Both the position numbers and the translations under genes were made by a program. The notes under the pieces are model-generated. The model was not told the DNA's origin, did not search any database, and saw nothing but the letters and a program-made list of their open reading frames with translations. Positions 16,157-23,278 of a DNA stretch of 64,000 nt are shown here, piece by piece. Source of the stretch: Escherichia coli (GTDB taxonomy: Bacteria; Pseudomonadota; Gammaproteobacteria; Enterobacterales; Enterobacteriaceae); NCBI RefSeq assembly GCF_001677475.2, contig NZ_CP015229.1. One strand, given 5' to 3'. Position 1 is the first letter of the stretch; every line of letters starts with the position of its first letter.

Positions 16157-16900
16157 TTATTTCCCGCCCGCCAAATCGATAAAACTTCCCGTGACATAAG
16201 AGGCTTTATCACTAAGCAGCCAGACAATGGCCTGCGCGACCTCTTCCGCCTGTCCGCCGCGCTGCATGGGGATGTTCGACTTAACGCGATCGACGCGTCC
16301 GGGTTCACCACCGCTGGCATGCATTTCGGTATAAATAAACCCAGGCCGCACGCCGTTAACGCGAATGCCCTGCGCGGCGACTTCCAGCGATAATCCGGTG
16401 GTTAACGTATCAATCGCCCCTTTCGATGCCGCATAATCAACGTATTCTCCGGGTGATCCCAGCCTGGCTGCTACCGAAGAAACATTGACGATAGCGCCGC
16501 CACTGCCGCCGTTTTTCAGCGCCATGCGTTTTACCGCCTCGCGGCAGCAGAGAAAATAACCCGTCACGTTGGTGGAAAGTACTTGGTTGATTCGCTCTGC
16601 CGTGAGATTTTCCACTGTGCATTGGGTAAACAATATTCCTGCGTTATTGACCAGCGCGGCTAACGGTTCATCACGCTGATCGATTGCTGTAAACATTGCG
16701 ATAACCTGATTTTCGTCGCTGATATCCGCCTGGAGCACAAATGCCTTGCCACCGGCTTGCGTTATTAAGTTCACCACTTCCTGCGCCGCGTGGAGGTTTT
16801 GCTGATAATTAACCGCCACCGTATACCCTTCTTTTACCAGCAGCAGCGCAGTTGCCCGCCCAATGCCGCGACTACCACCGGTCACAAGTGCTATAGCCAT
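16157..16900 (-). CDS. ygfF: short-chain dehydrogenase/reductase, 247 aa
   Basis: ORF 16157..16900; TGGSRGIG Rossmann motif and YAASK catalytic motif. Confidence 0.9.
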   Translation of the reverse strand: MAIALVTGGSRGIGRATALLLVKEGYTVAVNYQQNLHAAQEVVNLITQAGGKAFVLQADISDENQVIAMFTAIDQRDEPLAALVNNAGILFTQCTVENLTAERINQVLSTNVTGYFLCCREAVKRMALKNGGSGGAIVNVSSVAARLGSPGEYVDYAASKGAIDTLTTGLSLEVAAQGIRVNGVRPGFIYTEMHASGGEPGRVDRVKSNIPMQRGGQAEEVAQAIVWLLSDKASYVTGSFIDLAGGK

Positions 16901-16916
16901 TTGTTTTCCCCAAAAA

Positions 16917-17106
16917 TAAAGGCGCCGAAGCGCCTTTCAAATTGATGACAAAGTGCGTTTTTATGCCGGATGCGGCGTGAACGCCTTATCCAGCCTACAA
17001 GATCGTGCAAATTCAATACATTGCAGAGACCATGTAGGCCTGATAAACGAAGTGCATCAGGCAATGTTGAGTTTGTCATCAGCCTCAAAGGCGCCGAAGC
17101 GCCTTT
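16917..17106. repeat. REP pair (BIME/RIP-like): two inverted REP units with a linker, bracketed by duplicated hairpin AAAGGCGCCGAAGCGCCTTT
   Basis: REP unit TGCCGGATGCGGCGTGAACGCCTTATCCAGCCTAC (about 16964-16998) and inverted unit TGCCTGATGCACTTCGTTTATCAGGCCTAC (about 17033-17064); identical 20-bp hairpins at 16918-16937 and 17087-17106. Confidence 0.8.
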
Positions 17107-17128
17107 AGAAGATAGTCGAATCAGTAAA

Positions 17129-20002
17129 TTACTGGTATTCGCTAATCGGTACGCAGGAGCAGAACAGGTTACGGTCGCCGTAAACATCATCCAGACGTTT
17201 CACTGTTGGCCAGTATTTGTCTGCCACGCCTGCCGGGAATACTGCAACGTCACGGCTGTACGGATGCGCCCACTCGGCGACCAGTTCGCTCTGAATGTGC
17301 GGCGCGTTCACCAGCGGGTTATCTTCCAGCGGCCAGACACCAGCTTTCACCTGTTCAATTTCTGCGCGGATAGCCAGCATAGCGTCGATAAAGCGATCCA
17401 GTTCCACTTTGCTTTCAGATTCAGTCGGTTCAACCATCAGCGTACCCGCCACCGGGAACGACATCGTCGGCGCGTGGAAACCGTAGTCGATCAGGCGCTT
17501 GGCAATATCCAGCTCGCTGATGCCGGTTTCTTCTTTCAGCGGGCGAATATCGAGAATACATTCGTGCGCCACGCGACCGTCGCGACCGGTATACAGCACC
17601 GGGAAGGCATCCTGCAGGCGGCTGGCAATATAGTTGGCGTTAAGAATTGCCACCTGGCTTGCTTTTTTCAGCCCTTCTGCGCCCATCATGCGGATGTACA
17701 TCCAGCTGATTGGCAGAATGGATGCGCTACCGAACGGTGCCGCAGAAACCGCGCCCTGACGGGTTAACATGCCTTCGATTTGCACCACGCTATGACCCGG
17801 TACAAACGGTGCCAGATGCGCTTTCACACCGATCGGTCCCATACCCGGACCACCACCGCCGTGCGGAATGCAGAAAGTTTTATGCAGGTTAAGGTGCGAA
17901 ACATCCGCGCCAATAAAGCCCGGCGAAGTGATACCAACCTGAGCGTTCATGTTCGCGCCATCAAGGTAAACCTGACCACCGAACTGATGCACGACTTCAC
18001 ACACCTCACGGATCGTTTCTTCATACACGCCGTGGGTGGAAGGATAGGTCACCATGATACAGGAGAGGTTATCGCCCGCCTGTTCCGCTTTCGCGCGCAG
18101 ATCAGTCAGATCGATGTTGCCGTTTTTATCACACGCCACAACCACCACCTGCATTCCTGCCATATGTGCAGAAGCGGGGTTAGTTCCGTGCGCAGAAGCC
18201 GGGATCAGGCAGATATCGCGATGCCCTTCGTTGCGGCTTTCATGATAATGACGAATCGCCAGCAGGCCCGCATATTCGCCCTGTGCGCCAGAGTTCGGCT
18301 GCATACAAACGGCGTCGTAACCGGTCAGTTTCACCAGCCAGTCAGCCAACTGCGCAATCATCTGCTGATAACCTTCGGCCTGTTCCGGCGGGCAGAACGG
18401 GTGCAGTTCGGCAAATTCCGGCCAGGTGATTGGGATCATCTCGGCGGCGGCGTTCAGTTTCATGGTGCAGGAACCCAGCGGGATCATCGCCTGATTCAGC
18501 GCCAGATCTTTACGCTCCAGCGAGTGCATATAGCGCATCATTTCGGTTTCGCTGTGGTAGCGATTAAACACCGGATGAGTGAGGATTTCGTCGTCGCGCA
18601 GCATCGCAGGCTGAATAGAGCGGCTGTCGTGAGCCACGTCTTTGTCCAGCGTGTCGATCTCCAGCCCGTGGTTATCGCCCAGCAGCACGCTGAAAAGCTG
18701 CATCACGTTTTCACGCGTGGTGGTTTCATCAAGGGTGATCCCAACCGCGTTCAGGATATCGCTACGCAGGTTGATTTCAGCCGCTTCGGCACGCGTCAGT
18801 ACGCCCGCTTTGTCGGCCACTTCCACACACAAGGTGTCGAAATAGTGCGCATGACGCAGTTTCAGACCTTTTTGTTGCAGGCCCGCCGCCAGGATATCGG
18901 TCAGACGGTGGATGCGGTTAGCGATACGTTTCAGGCCCACCGGGCCGTGATAAACGGCATACAGGCTGGCGATGTTTGCCAGCAGTACCTGGGAAGTACA
19001 AATGTTGGAGTTCGCTTTCTCACGGCGAATATGTTGCTCGCGAGTCTGCATCGCCATGCGCAGCGCGGTATTGCCAGCTGCATCTTTCGATACACCGATA
19101 ATACGGCCCGGCATTGAGCGTTTGTATTCATCTTTCGCCGCAAAGAATGCCGCGTGTGGGCCTCCGTAGCCCATCGGCACGCCGAAACGTTGCGCCGAAC
19201 CAAAGACAATATCCGCGCCCTGTTTACCCGGCGCAGTTAACAGCACCAGCGCCATAATATCGGCGGCAACGCTGACCACGATTTTGCGTGATTTCAGTTC
19301 GCTGATAAGCGCAGTATAGTCGTGGATTTCACCGGTAGTGCCGACCTGCTGTAACAGCACGCCGAAGACGTCCTGATGATCGAGCACTTTTTGCGCGTCA
19401 TCGACAATCACTTCAAAACCAAAGGTTTCGGCACGAGTACGGACCACATCCAGCGTTTGCGGATGCACATCGGAAGCCACGAAGAAGCGGTTGGCATTTT
19501 TCAGTTTGCTGACGCGTTTCGCCATCGCCATTGCTTCGGCGGCAGCAGTGGCTTCGTCAAGAAGAGAAGCCGATGCCATATCCAGCCCGGTTAAATCCAG
19601 CGTTACCTGCTGGAAGTTGAGCAGTGCTTCAAGGCGGCCCTGGGAGACTTCAGGTTGATACGGAGTATACGCGGTATACCAGCCCGGATTTTCCAGCATG
19701 TTACGCAGGATAACCGGCGGTAACTGCACGGCGGTGTACCCCATGCCGATGTAAGACGTGAAGCGTTTATTGCGACTGGCAATAGCCTTGAGTTCTGCCA
19801 GTGCGGCGTATTCGGTCGCCGGTGCGCCAACCTGCGGCGGAGTCGCAAGCTGAATATCTTTCGGCACAATCTGGCCGGTCAGCGCGTTTAACGATTGTGC
19901 GCCAACGGCATTCAGCATTTCTTGCTGTTGCGCGGCGTCCGGTCCGATATGGCGTTCAATAAAAGCGCCGCTGTTTTCAAGCTGGCTTAACGTCTGTGTC
20001 AT
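17129..20002 (-). CDS. gcvP: glycine dehydrogenase (decarboxylating), glycine cleavage P protein, 957 aa
   Basis: ORF 17129..20086; start at [11 protein letters not shown] (ATG 20002..20000) gives the K-12 length. Confidence 0.95.
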
Positions 20003-20120
20003 GAGCGATGGTTCCTGAAACGTGCAGTGAATTGTGAACCTCTCTCCTTGCGAAGAGAGTGAGGGTGAGGCGTAAAAGTTCCTCACCCTGATCCTCTCCC
20101 GCAGAAGAGGAATAAAGCCG

Positions 20121-20510
20121 TTACTCGTCTTCTAACAATGCTTCGTATGCGGTCGCATCCAGCAGTGATTCCAGTTCGCTTTCATCGCTGGCTTTGATTT
20201 TGAAAATCCAGCCGCCTGCATACGGTTCGCTGTTCACCAGTTCCGGGGAATCGCTCAGTGCGTCGTTTACCGCCACGATTTCACCGCTTACTGGCGCATA
20301 AATGTCTGACGCCGCTTTTACTGATTCGGCAACCGCGCAGTCATCGCCCGCGCTAACCGTTGCGCCCACTTCCGGCAGGTCAACAAACACCATATCGCCT
20401 AACAGCTCCTGGGCATGTTCGGTGATACCAACGGTGTAAGTGCCGTCGGCTTCTTTACGCAGCCATTCGTGTTCTTTGCTGTATTTCAGTTCTGCTGGTA
20501 CGTTGCTCAT
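20121..20510 (-). CDS. gcvH: glycine cleavage system H protein (lipoyl carrier), 129 aa
   Basis: ORF 20121..20513; lipoyl-lysine motif ESVKAAS. Confidence 0.95.
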
Positions 20511-20533
20511 CAATCAATCTCCAAAAAAGTAAA

Positions 20534-21628
20534 TCACGCGACGGCTTTACCGTTACGCACAAAAACAGGTTTCGTCACTTTAACCGGCATTTCACGGTTG
20601 CGAATTTGCACAATCGCTGTTTCACCAATACCTTCCGGCACGCGCGCCAGCGCAATGCTGTAACCCAGCGTCGGGGAGAAAGTACCGCTGGTGATAATGC
20701 CTTCATGCTGGTTGCCCTGCGCATCGGTAAAGCGTACCGGCAGTTCATTACGCAGCACGCCTTTTTCGGTCATCACCAGACCAACCAGTTTTTCTGTGCC
20801 ATGCTCACGCTGCACTTCCAGGGCTTCACGACCGATAAAGTCACGATCTGCCGGTTCCCAGGCGATAGTCCAGCCCATGTTGGCGGCTAACGGAGAAATG
20901 GTTTCGTCCATCTCCTGACCATAAAGATTCATACCCGCTTCCAGACGCAGCGTGTCACGCGCGCCCAGGCCGCATGGCTTAACGCCCGCTTCCACCAGCG
21001 CACGCCAGAAATCGGCCGCTTTTTCATTGGGCAGCGCAATTTCATAGCCCGCTTCACCGGTATAACCAGTGGTGGCAATAAACAGATCGCCCGCCTGCAC
21101 GCCAAAGAACGGTTTCATCCCTTCCACCGCCTGACGCTGGGCGTCATTAAACAGTGTGGCAGCTTTTGCCTGCGCATTCGGCCCTTGTACGGCAATCATG
21201 GAAAGGTCATCACGAACGGTAATTTCGATGCCGAAAGGTTCAGCGTGTTGGGTGATCCAGGAGAGGTCTTTTTCGCGGGTGGCGGAGTTAACAACGAGGC
21301 GGAAGAAATCTTCAGTAAAATAGTAGACGATGAGATCATCTATCACACCGCCAGAGGCATTCAACATCCCCGAGTAAAGGGCTTTGCCGCTTTTGGTGAG
21401 TTTCGCCACATCGTTCGCCAGCAGATAACGCAGAAACTCCCGGGTGCGGCTGCCGCGGAGATCGACGATGGTCATATGTGACACATCAAACATTCCGGCA
21501 TCGGTACGTACCGCATGATGTTCGTCGATTTGCGAACCGTAATGCAGCGGCATCATCCAGCCGTGGAAATCCACCATGCGAGCGCCGCAAAGCGTGTGTT
21601 GTTCGTACAAAGGAGTCTGTTGTGCCAT
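20534..21628 (-). CDS. gcvT: aminomethyltransferase, glycine cleavage T protein, 364 aa
   Basis: ORF 20534..21628; first gene of gcvTHP. Confidence 0.95.
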
Positions 21629-21990
21629 CTTGTCCTCATTGAATAAGCGGGGCTGACAACTTTTTCATGGCGAAATTATCACCACGAAACCCAGCATCGG
21701 GGCCACTCCCGGTCCCCAACGCAATCGTTCTCTTTTGTCTGAACTTACCACCGAAACAGACTGTTAACCATAAGGTAAAATTGATCATCACATTAGCTTA
21801 TGGTTAAAAAACGCCAAAATCGCAACAGAATAAAAAACCAAAAAACACACCAGTTTCTATACAAAGATGATGCTATTAGAAAGTTAATTTGAATAAGGCA
21901 ATATTAAGAACTGAAAAAATGTCAAAAAATACTAAATCAAAAAATCATGGCATTAGAAAATATAATGCGAAAACGGAGGTGAAATTAGTT
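21629..21990 (-). promoter_or_regulatory. gcvTHP promoter and upstream control region
   Basis: About 450 bp of AT-rich non-coding DNA upstream of gcvT; in K-12 this region holds the gcvT promoter and the GcvA/Lrp/PurR sites. Individual sites not mapped here. Confidence 0.5.
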
Positions 21991-22000
21991 TATTTCAAAT

Positions 22001-22032
22001 GAGGAAAATCTCCCGGCGAAAAAACCGGGAGA
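22001..22032 (-). terminator. intrinsic terminator downstream of ubiI (end of pepP-ubiH-ubiI unit)
   Basis: Perfect 8-bp stem TCTCCCGG/CCGGGAGA with 8-nt loop, followed on the minus strand by TTTTCCTC. Confidence 0.7.
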
Positions 22033-22075
22033 TGAAAGTGTGATGGGTATCAAATAAACAACAGAGGAAAAATTT

Positions 22076-23278
22076 TTAACGCAGCCATTCAGGCAAATCG
22101 TTTAATCCCATTGCCTGGCGGATAAGTTGCGGCTTAACGCCAGGAAGCGTGTCGGCCAGTTTCAAACCAATATCACGCAGCAGTTTTTTCGCCGGATTGG
22201 TACCGGAAAACAGATCGCGGAATCCCTGCATACCAGCCAGCATCAGCGCCGCACTGTGCTTGCGGCTACGCTCATAGCGACGCAGATAAATGTACTGCCC
22301 GATGTCTTTCCCCTGACGATGCAACCGTTTCAGTTCAGCAATCAGCTCTGCAGCATCCATAAAGCCGAGATTTACCCCCTGCCCCGCCAGCGGGTGAATG
22401 GTATGCGCGGCGTCGCCCACCAGCGCCAGACGATGCGCGGCAAACTGGCGCGCATAACGCCCCGTCAGTGGGAACACCTGACGCGCGCTCTCAACCTTGC
22501 ATAAGCCAAGGCGATTATCAAAAGCGATATTTAACGCGCGATTAAATTCGTCTTCACTTGCCTGCTGCATCCGCTGCGCTTCCTCTGGCGACAGTGACCA
22601 GACAATCGAGCAAAGATGCGGATCGCTAAGCGGTAAAAAGGCCAGAATGCCTTCGCCATGGAAAACCTGCCGCGCCACCGCATCATGCGGTTCTTCCGTG
22701 CGAATGGTCGCTACCAGCGCGTGATGCTGATAATCCCAGAAAGTCAGCGGAATATCGGCTTTGTTGCGCAACCAGGAATTAGCGCCGTCCGCGCCAATCA
22801 CCAGGCGCGCCGTTAACATGCTGCCATCTTTCAGCGTCAGGAAGGTTTCGTTTTCTCCCCAGGCGACCTGCTGTAATTCTGCGGGGGCCAACAGAGTGAT
22901 ATCTGACGACTGATGCGCTTTGTTCCACAGCGCGTAGTGAATCACTGAGTTTTCAACGATATGCCCAAGATGGCTATAGCCCATGCTTTGATCGTCAAAC
23001 GAAATGTGACCAAAACTGTCTTTGTCCCACACTTCCATGCCGTGATAGCAGCTGGCCCTACGAGCGAGAATGTCCTGCCAGACGCCAAGACGGGTGAGTA
23101 ATTTTTCGCTGGCGGCATTGATAGCCGAAACGCGCAGTTGTGGTGGTGCATCCGCCGCCAGAGGTTCCGGTACGCGCTGCTCCAGTACGGCAACGCGTAA
23201 GCCGCTACCCTGTAAGCCGCAGGCAACCGCCAGCCCCACCATGCCGCCGCCAACAATGGCTACATCAACACTTTGCAT
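22076..23278 (-). CDS. ubiI: FAD-dependent 2-octaprenylphenol hydroxylase UbiI (VisC), 400 aa
   Basis: ORF 22076..23278; N-terminal GGGMVG FAD-binding motif. Confidence 0.9.
   Translation of the reverse strand: MQSVDVAIVGGGMVGLAVACGLQGSGLRVAVLEQRVPEPLAADAPPQLRVSAINAASEKLLTRLGVWQDILARRASCYHGMEVWDKDSFGHISFDDQSMGYSHLGHIVENSVIHYALWNKAHQSSDITLLAPAELQQVAWGENETFLTLKDGSMLTARLVIGADGANSWLRNKADIPLTFWDYQHHALVATIRTEEPHDAVARQVFHGEGILAFLPLSDPHLCSIVWSLSPEEAQRMQQASEDEFNRALNIAFDNRLGLCKVESARQVFPLTGRYARQFAAHRLALVGDAAHTIHPLAGQGVNLGFMDAAELIAELKRLHRQGKDIGQYIYLRRYERSRKHSAALMLAGMQGFRDLFSGTNPAKKLLRDIGLKLADTLPGVKPQLIRQAMGLNDLPEWLR

Follow-up and report, generated by a model that had tools for sequence, protein, structure and literature searches.

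The window analysed here is a stretch of 64,000 nucleotides (64 kb) of Escherichia coli DNA, the minus strand of which carries the glycine-cleavage operon gcvT-gcvH-gcvP. gcvT occupies positions 20534-21628, gcvH positions 20121-20510 (stop codon included, at 20121-20123) and gcvP positions 17129-20002, with its ATG at 20002-20000. gcvH and gcvP are separated by an intercistronic spacer of 118 nt (20003-20120, minus strand), the first nucleotide of which is window position 20120. With the K-12 annotation of gcvH and gcvP, the K-12 spacer aligns collinearly with that of the window and shows four differences from it. The longer version of gcvP found in the list of open reading frames (17129-20086), which starts at a GTG at 20086 within the central hairpin described below, is an in-frame artefact, the annotated start being the ATG at 20002. 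The last 37 nt of the spacer (20003-20039, minus strand; ..TTCACAATTCACTGCACGTTTCAGGAACCATCGCTC) constitute a conserved gcvP leader with a Shine-Dalgarno AGGA at 20016-20013, which is almost invariant in Enterobacteriaceae regardless of the repeat that lies upstream. This leader is C/A-rich, can form a small hairpin over the Shine-Dalgarno AGGA and may be a translational control site or the target of a small RNA. Neither a sigma-70-like promoter (promoter scan) nor a minus-strand terminator (consensus scan) was returned between 19700 and 20700, so that this interval offers no support for an internal promoter of gcvP or for a classical terminator.

The RNA-sense strand of the spacer folds into three consecutive hairpins with a minimum free energy (MFE) of -44.3 kcal/mol, vs. 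-30.0 ± 3.3 kcal/mol for 200 dinucleotide shuffles, none of which folded as well (0/200; z = -4.39). A preliminary description of this DNA had reported three consecutive stem-loops in the spacer and a perfect 8-bp stem at 20063..20088. Both are indeed present, although the sequence was quoted there in the orientation opposite to that of the transcript, which, the operon being on the minus strand, corresponds to its reverse complement. Hairpin 1 (20092..20111, minus strand; 8 bp, UCCUCUUC-UGCG-GGAGAGGA, -11.8 kcal/mol) begins 9 nt past the gcvH stop codon; its stem includes one U.G pair and its loop is of the UNCG type. The central hairpin (20062..20089, minus strand; 9 bp, A-GGGUGAGG, 10-nt loop, CCUCACCC-U, -15.1 kcal/mol) is the strongest of the three and consists of a perfect GGGUGAGG/CCUCACCC stem plus an A-U pair; the GGGTGAGG/CCTCACCC stem of the preliminary description (20063-20088) lies inside it and is unique in the window, the pattern GGGTGAGG-N4-20-CCTCACCC occurring once in 64 kb vs. 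not at all in 100 shuffles. Hairpin 3 (20040..20059, minus strand; 8 bp, CUCUCUUC-GCAA-GGAGAGAG, -10.6 kcal/mol) includes one U.G pair, and its loop is of the GNRA type (GCAA in this strain vs. GUAA in K-12).

In E. coli, the spacer folds slightly better in the sense than in the antisense orientation (-44.3 vs. -40.5 kcal/mol). G.U pairs did not, however, favour the sense strand consistently across genera, and the argument for RNA-level selection built on such a bias was dropped. Cleavage by RNase III of an alternative long hairpin was also rejected, its continuous helix being too short (~15 bp plus an internal loop). An Rfam search of positions 16500-22500 at a permissive threshold returned no real match in the spacer, the sole hit there being whalefall-1 at chance level (19.8 bits vs. 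a gathering score of 37; E = 0.15).

Relationship to BoxC repeats

BoxC elements, also known as PIT or TMECO (Bachellier; Hoyne and Maher, 2000; Holder et al., 2015, PMC4666352), have the published consensus CCCTCNCCC-N3-6-GGGNGAGGG-N3-GGGNGAGGG and form inverted pairs at 5 of 18 K-12 loci (PMC4666352). The spacer, which is likewise intergenic, has the same block order, i.e., pyrimidine block, loop, purine block, 3-nt linker and second purine block, and its sense strand reads CCTCTTC-TGCG-GGAGAGG-ATCA-GGGTGAGG ... CCTCACCC-TCA-CTCTCTTC-GCAA-GGAGAGAG. Two BoxC-like units can be delimited: unit A (20080..20111, minus strand), which reads TCCTCTTC TGCG GGAGAGGA TCA GGGTGAGGA, and the inverted and more decayed unit B (20039..20070, plus strand), which reads CCTCTCTCC TTGC GAAGAGAG TGA GGGTGAGG. 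Their GGGTGAGG blocks face each other, as in the inverted pairs of K-12. This arrangement explains the three-hairpin layout, because each outer hairpin is made of the pyrimidine and purine blocks of one unit (hairpin 1 of the pyrimidine block and first purine block of unit A, hairpin 3 of the corresponding blocks of unit B read off the other strand), and the central hairpin is built from the two facing third blocks. The spacer is a decayed inverted pair of BoxC repeats inherited in synteny, an identity that the preliminary description had missed, as it had the absence of a terminator U-tract.

The resemblance is imperfect. Both units fail the strict published consensus: unit A has two mismatches to GGGNGAGGG-N3-GGGNGAGGG and about three more in its pyrimidine block, and unit B is worse. 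Unlike in BoxC, the G runs of the spacer are shortened (e.g., GGAGAGGA and GAAGAGAG), the gap between the units is 10 nt instead of 16-27 nt, and TCA and TGA take the place of the TTA (type A) and CCG (type B) linkers, while the inverted layout with facing third blocks is kept. The spacer is absent from the 23 listed K-12 copies. In an nhmmer search with a profile built from the 23 published K-12 TMECO copies, unit A was the best match of the window (E = 0.012) and unit B the second best in the 64 kb (E = 4.1). Each match is weak alone; the two are adjacent, inverted and located on the two halves of the spacer, and it is in this adjacency and orientation, not in the single scores, that the weight of the profile evidence lies. 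The inverted repeat as a whole has 29-nt arms with 72% complementarity. The element is thus best described as a decayed derivative of BoxC, not as a strict member of the family.

Synteny with other genera constitutes stronger evidence for the relationship than the profile matches. The gcvH region was fetched from 80 species and the gcvH-gcvP spacers were extracted, Salmonella and Klebsiella not being among these 80 loci. Near-canonical BoxC pairs are found 6-10 nt past the gcvH stop codon in Enterobacter cloacae, E. asburiae and Pseudocitrobacter, and the linkers in Enterobacter and Pseudocitrobacter are CAG or CCG plus TTA. More diverged pairs occupy the orthologous site in Buttiauxella (19 nt past the stop codon), Siccibacter and two further Enterobacteriaceae, and another Escherichia spacer of the set (L003) is an intermediate form with TTA/TAA linkers. 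All these spacers align block for block, and collinearly, with that of E. coli, which is thus homologous by descent to canonical BoxC copies, from the shared insertion site and the collinear alignment. Since the cross-genus MAFFT alignment was not structure-aware enough for column-wise covariation, each sequence was folded separately with a limited pair span; all of the BoxC-bearing relatives proved able to adopt the three-hairpin layout.

RNA 3′ ends at the spacer and at other BoxC loci

The Term-seq map of K-12 MG1655 (Adams et al., 2021, PMC7815308, Suppl. file 1) places an RNA 3′ end at 3,049,097 (-), with 412,219 average reads in LB at OD 0.4 and 171,112 reads on a second sheet. The end at the gcvP terminator (3,046,123) has 36,065 reads (PMC7815308), a ratio of ~11 to be read in the knowledge that Term-seq counts are not strictly quantitative, and in published mapping no other RNA end in the gcv operon is as abundant as that at 3,049,097. 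Through the K-12/window alignment it falls at window position 20058 (minus strand; spacer nt 63), a U located 4 nt past the last paired base of the central hairpin and within the 5′ arm of hairpin 3. Term-seq, which the preliminary description had proposed as a check, hence finds an end immediately beyond the central stem. The stretch 3,048,400-3,049,099, made up of the promoter-distal half of the spacer and ~640 nt at the start of gcvP, contains no listed Rho termination region, and an internal gcvP 3′ end was scored as not Rho-dependent (PMC7815308). The same map contains two further 3′ ends near the start of the operon, one 66 nt inside gcvT (K-12 3,050,602; window ~21563, minus strand; 105,625 reads) and one in the gcvT 5′ UTR (K-12 3,050,723; window ~21684, minus strand; 80,101 reads), which hint at premature termination or processing there.

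A U-tract is absent after all three hairpins, with T-scores of 0.4-1.1 vs. 3.9 for the gcvP terminator. An RNA 3′ end does form in vivo, but the central hairpin (-15.1 kcal/mol) is followed immediately by CACUCUCUUCG (T-score 0.41) in place of a U-tract, and the element is therefore not a classical intrinsic terminator.

The position of the end recurs elsewhere. In the Term-seq table, 3′ ends lie 4-5 nt past the last paired base at five of the six BoxC hairpins examined, the gcv spacer included; the other four are at K-12 847,200, 3,781,065, 3,959,467 and 164,636, and their downstream sequences are unrelated. The BoxC hairpin at K-12 624,567 also coincides with a Term-seq end, so that the 4-5 nt offset is seen at four of the five ends outside gcv. 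Six further K-12 BoxC/TMECO loci have no Term-seq 3′ end. The association between BoxC and RNA 3′ ends is partial, not universal, and the effect may depend on the repeat being transcribed.

Trimming by 3′ exonucleases up to a stable stem is a long-known behaviour of REP elements. The spacer likewise places a stable hairpin inside a polycistronic transcript, with an offset that is independent of the tail (4 nt here, 4-5 nt at the four other loci). This fixed short offset leads us to favour a model in which the central hairpin of the decayed BoxC pair acts as a barrier to 3′ exonucleases and leaves a stable gcvTH mRNA, a reading that we consider probable, with limited confidence. As the gcvTHP mRNA is transcribed, the pyrimidine and purine blocks of each unit would pair into an outer hairpin, and the facing GGGTGAGG blocks would pair into the stronger central hairpin. 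Transcripts ended or cut downstream would be trimmed back through the weaker hairpin 3 (-10.6 kcal/mol) by 3′-to-5′ exonucleases, to which the central hairpin would be a barrier; trimming would stall 4 nt past the central stem and yield an abundant and stable gcvT-gcvH mRNA. GcvP would be encoded only by RNA intact across the spacer, and the net result would be more gcvTH than gcvP message from a single promoter. Such is the role of the classical terminator hairpins found at the orthologous site of other gamma-proteobacteria. Our own results or published data show the fold, the relationship to BoxC, the 3′ end in vivo and the pattern of conservation; we infer both that the end arises by trimming, not by polymerase release, and that the transcript ratio is under selection. 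A literature search found no direct measurement of gcvTH vs. gcvP mRNA or protein in E. coli.

The main weakness of the barrier model is the location of the 3′ end within the 5′ arm of hairpin 3: an exonuclease arriving from downstream must first unwind this hairpin of -10.6 kcal/mol, and must then stall at one that is only ~4.5 kcal/mol stronger. The end inside hairpin 3 is accounted for more simply by non-canonical termination at CUCUCUU followed by slight trimming. According to this alternative, the spacer would be a partial terminator, of a non-canonical type that is either U-poor and intrinsic or factor-assisted: RNA polymerase would release a fraction of the transcripts at or just past the central hairpin, near CUCUCUU, and read-through would supply gcvP. 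We regard it as the main rival of the barrier model, if a rather unlikely one. The 3′ end precedes the 3′ arm of hairpin 3, which is simple to understand if transcription stops there, and a classical hairpin followed by a U-run is present at the orthologous site in Photorhabdus, Yersinia, Serratia, Providencia, Pectobacterium and Pantoea and, judged by eye, in Dickeya, as well as in several Shewanella and Idiomarina spacers under a looser U-count rule. Moreover, the transcriptome map of Dickeya dadantii has an internal termination site after gcvH, at which ~71-76% of transcripts terminate (PMC9239193), and E. coli SMRT-Cappable-seq and SEnd-seq data also place a termination site after gcvH, as reported in that paper (PMC9239193). 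The supplements of SMRT-Cappable-seq and of TERMITe contain no gcvH entry. On the other hand, the tail CACUCUCUUCG lacks a U-tract and the minus-strand scan was negative; the same short offset at BoxC hairpins with unrelated downstream sequences points to trimming; and single PIT elements showed neither terminator nor promoter activity in the reporter tests of Hoyne and Maher (2002), as these are cited in PMC4666352.

The site of D. dadantii is alike in operon and position, and in yielding gcvTH transcripts together with read-through gcvTHP transcripts (PMC9239193). It differs in its structure, a GC-rich hairpin with a U-run, whereas E. coli has three BoxC-derived hairpins without one. The preliminary description had offered a processing or stabilising element, or a partial terminator, setting gcvT/H relative to gcvP; Term-seq and conservation support both, as alternatives.

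Variation and turnover of the spacer

Among 79 gamma-proteobacterial gcvH-gcvP spacers, 74 contain a hairpin of -14 kcal/mol or lower, mostly starting within ~20 nt of the gcvH stop codon. The element that supplies it varies: many of these hairpins are classical ones with a U-run, BoxC occupies the site in several Enterobacteriaceae, REPs hold it in Citrobacter, Lelliottia and Trabulsiella, and ERIC repeats in C. koseri and Kluyvera. The type of repeat (REP, ERIC or BoxC) differs across Enterobacteriaceae and even within Enterobacter. Only Erwinia and Rosenbergiella, the spacers of which measure 8-23 nt, are without a hairpin among the 79, and the element is therefore dispensable for the operon. 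Such a distribution would be expected if a hairpin of some kind had a conserved role after gcvH and the elements providing it replaced one another; it would be expected just as well of a site that simply tolerates the insertion of repeats.

Within E. coli, the spacer was found in 5,425 of 5,426 complete genomes, at ≥95% identity in all but a few, and at full length it is single-copy. Nine genomes sampled across the identity classes of these 5,425 gave seven alleles with six variable columns, none of them outside a loop: the central loop contains five, and the N of the GNRA loop is the sixth. The 50 stem positions and 50 flank positions were invariant in the nine genomes, and such a placement of the variable columns is expected by chance with P ~6e-6 (hypergeometric arithmetic on the nine genomes). 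The outer tetraloops keep their type, UGCG or UUCG in one case and GCAA or GUAA in the other. Conservation of the fold, the other check named in the preliminary description, is thus seen in E. coli as invariant stems and in the BoxC-bearing relatives as a shared capacity for the three-hairpin layout. In the central loop (20071-20080), 5 of 10 positions are polymorphic among the E. coli alleles, a 1-nt indel included, and this loop may be a mutational hot spot at the centre of a palindrome. In E. coli VTB96775v (L082, 226-395), the spacer measures 170 nt instead of 118 nt owing to a 52-bp palindromic expansion, which duplicates the central hairpin into a 31-bp perfect stem (MFE -96 kcal/mol) and is an example of repeat instability.

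These observations bear on the idea that the spacer is a neutral relic, i.e., a selfish BoxC pair decaying in a permissive site, in which case the 3′ end would arise without selection and the levels of GcvT, GcvH and GcvP would not meaningfully depend on it. BoxC has no established function (PMC4666352), both units have drifted from the consensus, the site accepts REP, ERIC or BoxC across Enterobacteriaceae, even inside Enterobacter, one E. coli strain carries the 52-bp expansion, and Erwinia and Rosenbergiella have no element at all. However, stem bases are invariant and loops polymorphic in the sampled alleles, both outer loops retain stable tetraloop types, the 3′ end of the spacer is the strongest in the operon, and a strong hairpin is kept in nearly every gamma-proteobacterial lineage sampled. 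We consequently judge a purely neutral relic to be unlikely.

The distance between hairpin 1 and gcvH could suggest yet another role. Liang, Rudd and Deutscher reportedly observed in 2015 that a REP element located within 15 nt of a stop codon stalls the terminating ribosomes and reduces output. By analogy, hairpin 1, 9 nt past the gcvH stop codon, could stall ribosomes and lower the output of GcvH, and it begins 6-10 nt past the stop codon in nearly all BoxC-bearing spacers, with the REPs of Citrobacter at a similar distance. Yet this constant distance is explained equally well by common descent from a single insertion, and a lower GcvH output would run opposite to the inferred excess of gcvTH mRNA; such a modulation of translation termination strikes us as barely plausible.

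A role at the DNA level would involve an intrastrand triplex or a cruciform adopted by the purine and pyrimidine blocks, with consequences for replication, recombination or supercoiling and not for RNA. Triplexes do form in vitro from canonical BoxC oligonucleotides, and local variability between strains is raised at BoxC loci (PMC4666352), to which may be added the 52-bp palindromic expansion and the divergence of the region downstream of gcvP, with REPs in this strain vs. a BoxC pair in K-12. The in vivo triplex was nevertheless not found by DMS footprinting (PMC4666352), the loss in the spacer of several G runs required for a triplex would weaken its potential to form one, and the RNA 3′ end is direct evidence of an effect on RNA, all of which makes a DNA-level role very improbable.

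The spacer among mRNA-end-forming elements

Intercistronic REP/BIME elements are reportedly mRNA stabilisers in malE-malF and in the his transport operon, according to work attributed to Newbury et al. in 1987 and Stern et al. in 1988. The gcvH-gcvP spacer resembles them in having a stable, repeat-derived hairpin between cistrons and a 3′ end a few nucleotides past the stem without a U-tract; the upstream message would be expected to outlast the downstream one, and REPs themselves hold this very site in Citrobacter, Lelliottia and Trabulsiella. It differs in belonging to another sequence family, no REP motif of the GCCGGATG type being present in the spacer. In the way it works, the element can be likened to a REP-type intercistronic stabiliser or to a leaky internal terminator; by descent it is a BoxC pair.

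A broader proposal is that BoxC pairs, like REPs, are mobile modules that set RNA 3′ ends without a U-tract, and that in Enterobacteriaceae, together with REP and ERIC, they have repeatedly replaced an ancestral intrinsic attenuator after gcvH, selection keeping some strong hairpin and, with it, an excess of gcvTH over gcvP, whichever element provides the hairpin at a given time. We put this forward tentatively, as an idea that is possible but on the doubtful side. BoxC has gone without an assigned function for 30 years, and the coincidence of this copy and of several canonical ones with precise 3′ ends suggests a REP-like behaviour at the RNA level; if BoxC does serve as a 3′-end module, this would be its first documented cellular role. 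The barrier model would also account for the way in which one promoter could give more gcvT-gcvH than gcvP message, a point of interest for those who use the native gcvTHP operon to engineer the assimilation of glycine or formate. The occupation of one site by BoxC, REP, ERIC or a classical terminator, depending on the genus, is a good example of functional replacement.

The internal 3′ end after gcvH was already known from published datasets, as was the BoxC repeat itself. What is new is modest: an unlisted, decayed copy of BoxC, the association of precise RNA 3′ ends with BoxC hairpins, and the observation that BoxC, REP, ERIC and classical terminators replace one another at a single operon site. 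The spacer is a real and fairly ordinary mRNA-end-forming element, and it overturns nothing.

Repeats are also found at the other end of gcvP. In this strain, REP/BIME units lie after the gcvP terminator (window 16950-17060; L001 1950-2100), where Rfam ES036/CssrF matches 16999-17041 (plus strand; 40.8 bits, above the gathering score) and naRNA4 matches 16957-16995 in part (minus strand). At the matching place downstream of gcvP, K-12 carries a canonical inverted pair of BoxC (TMECO 10+11), so that its gcvP lies between two BoxC pairs.
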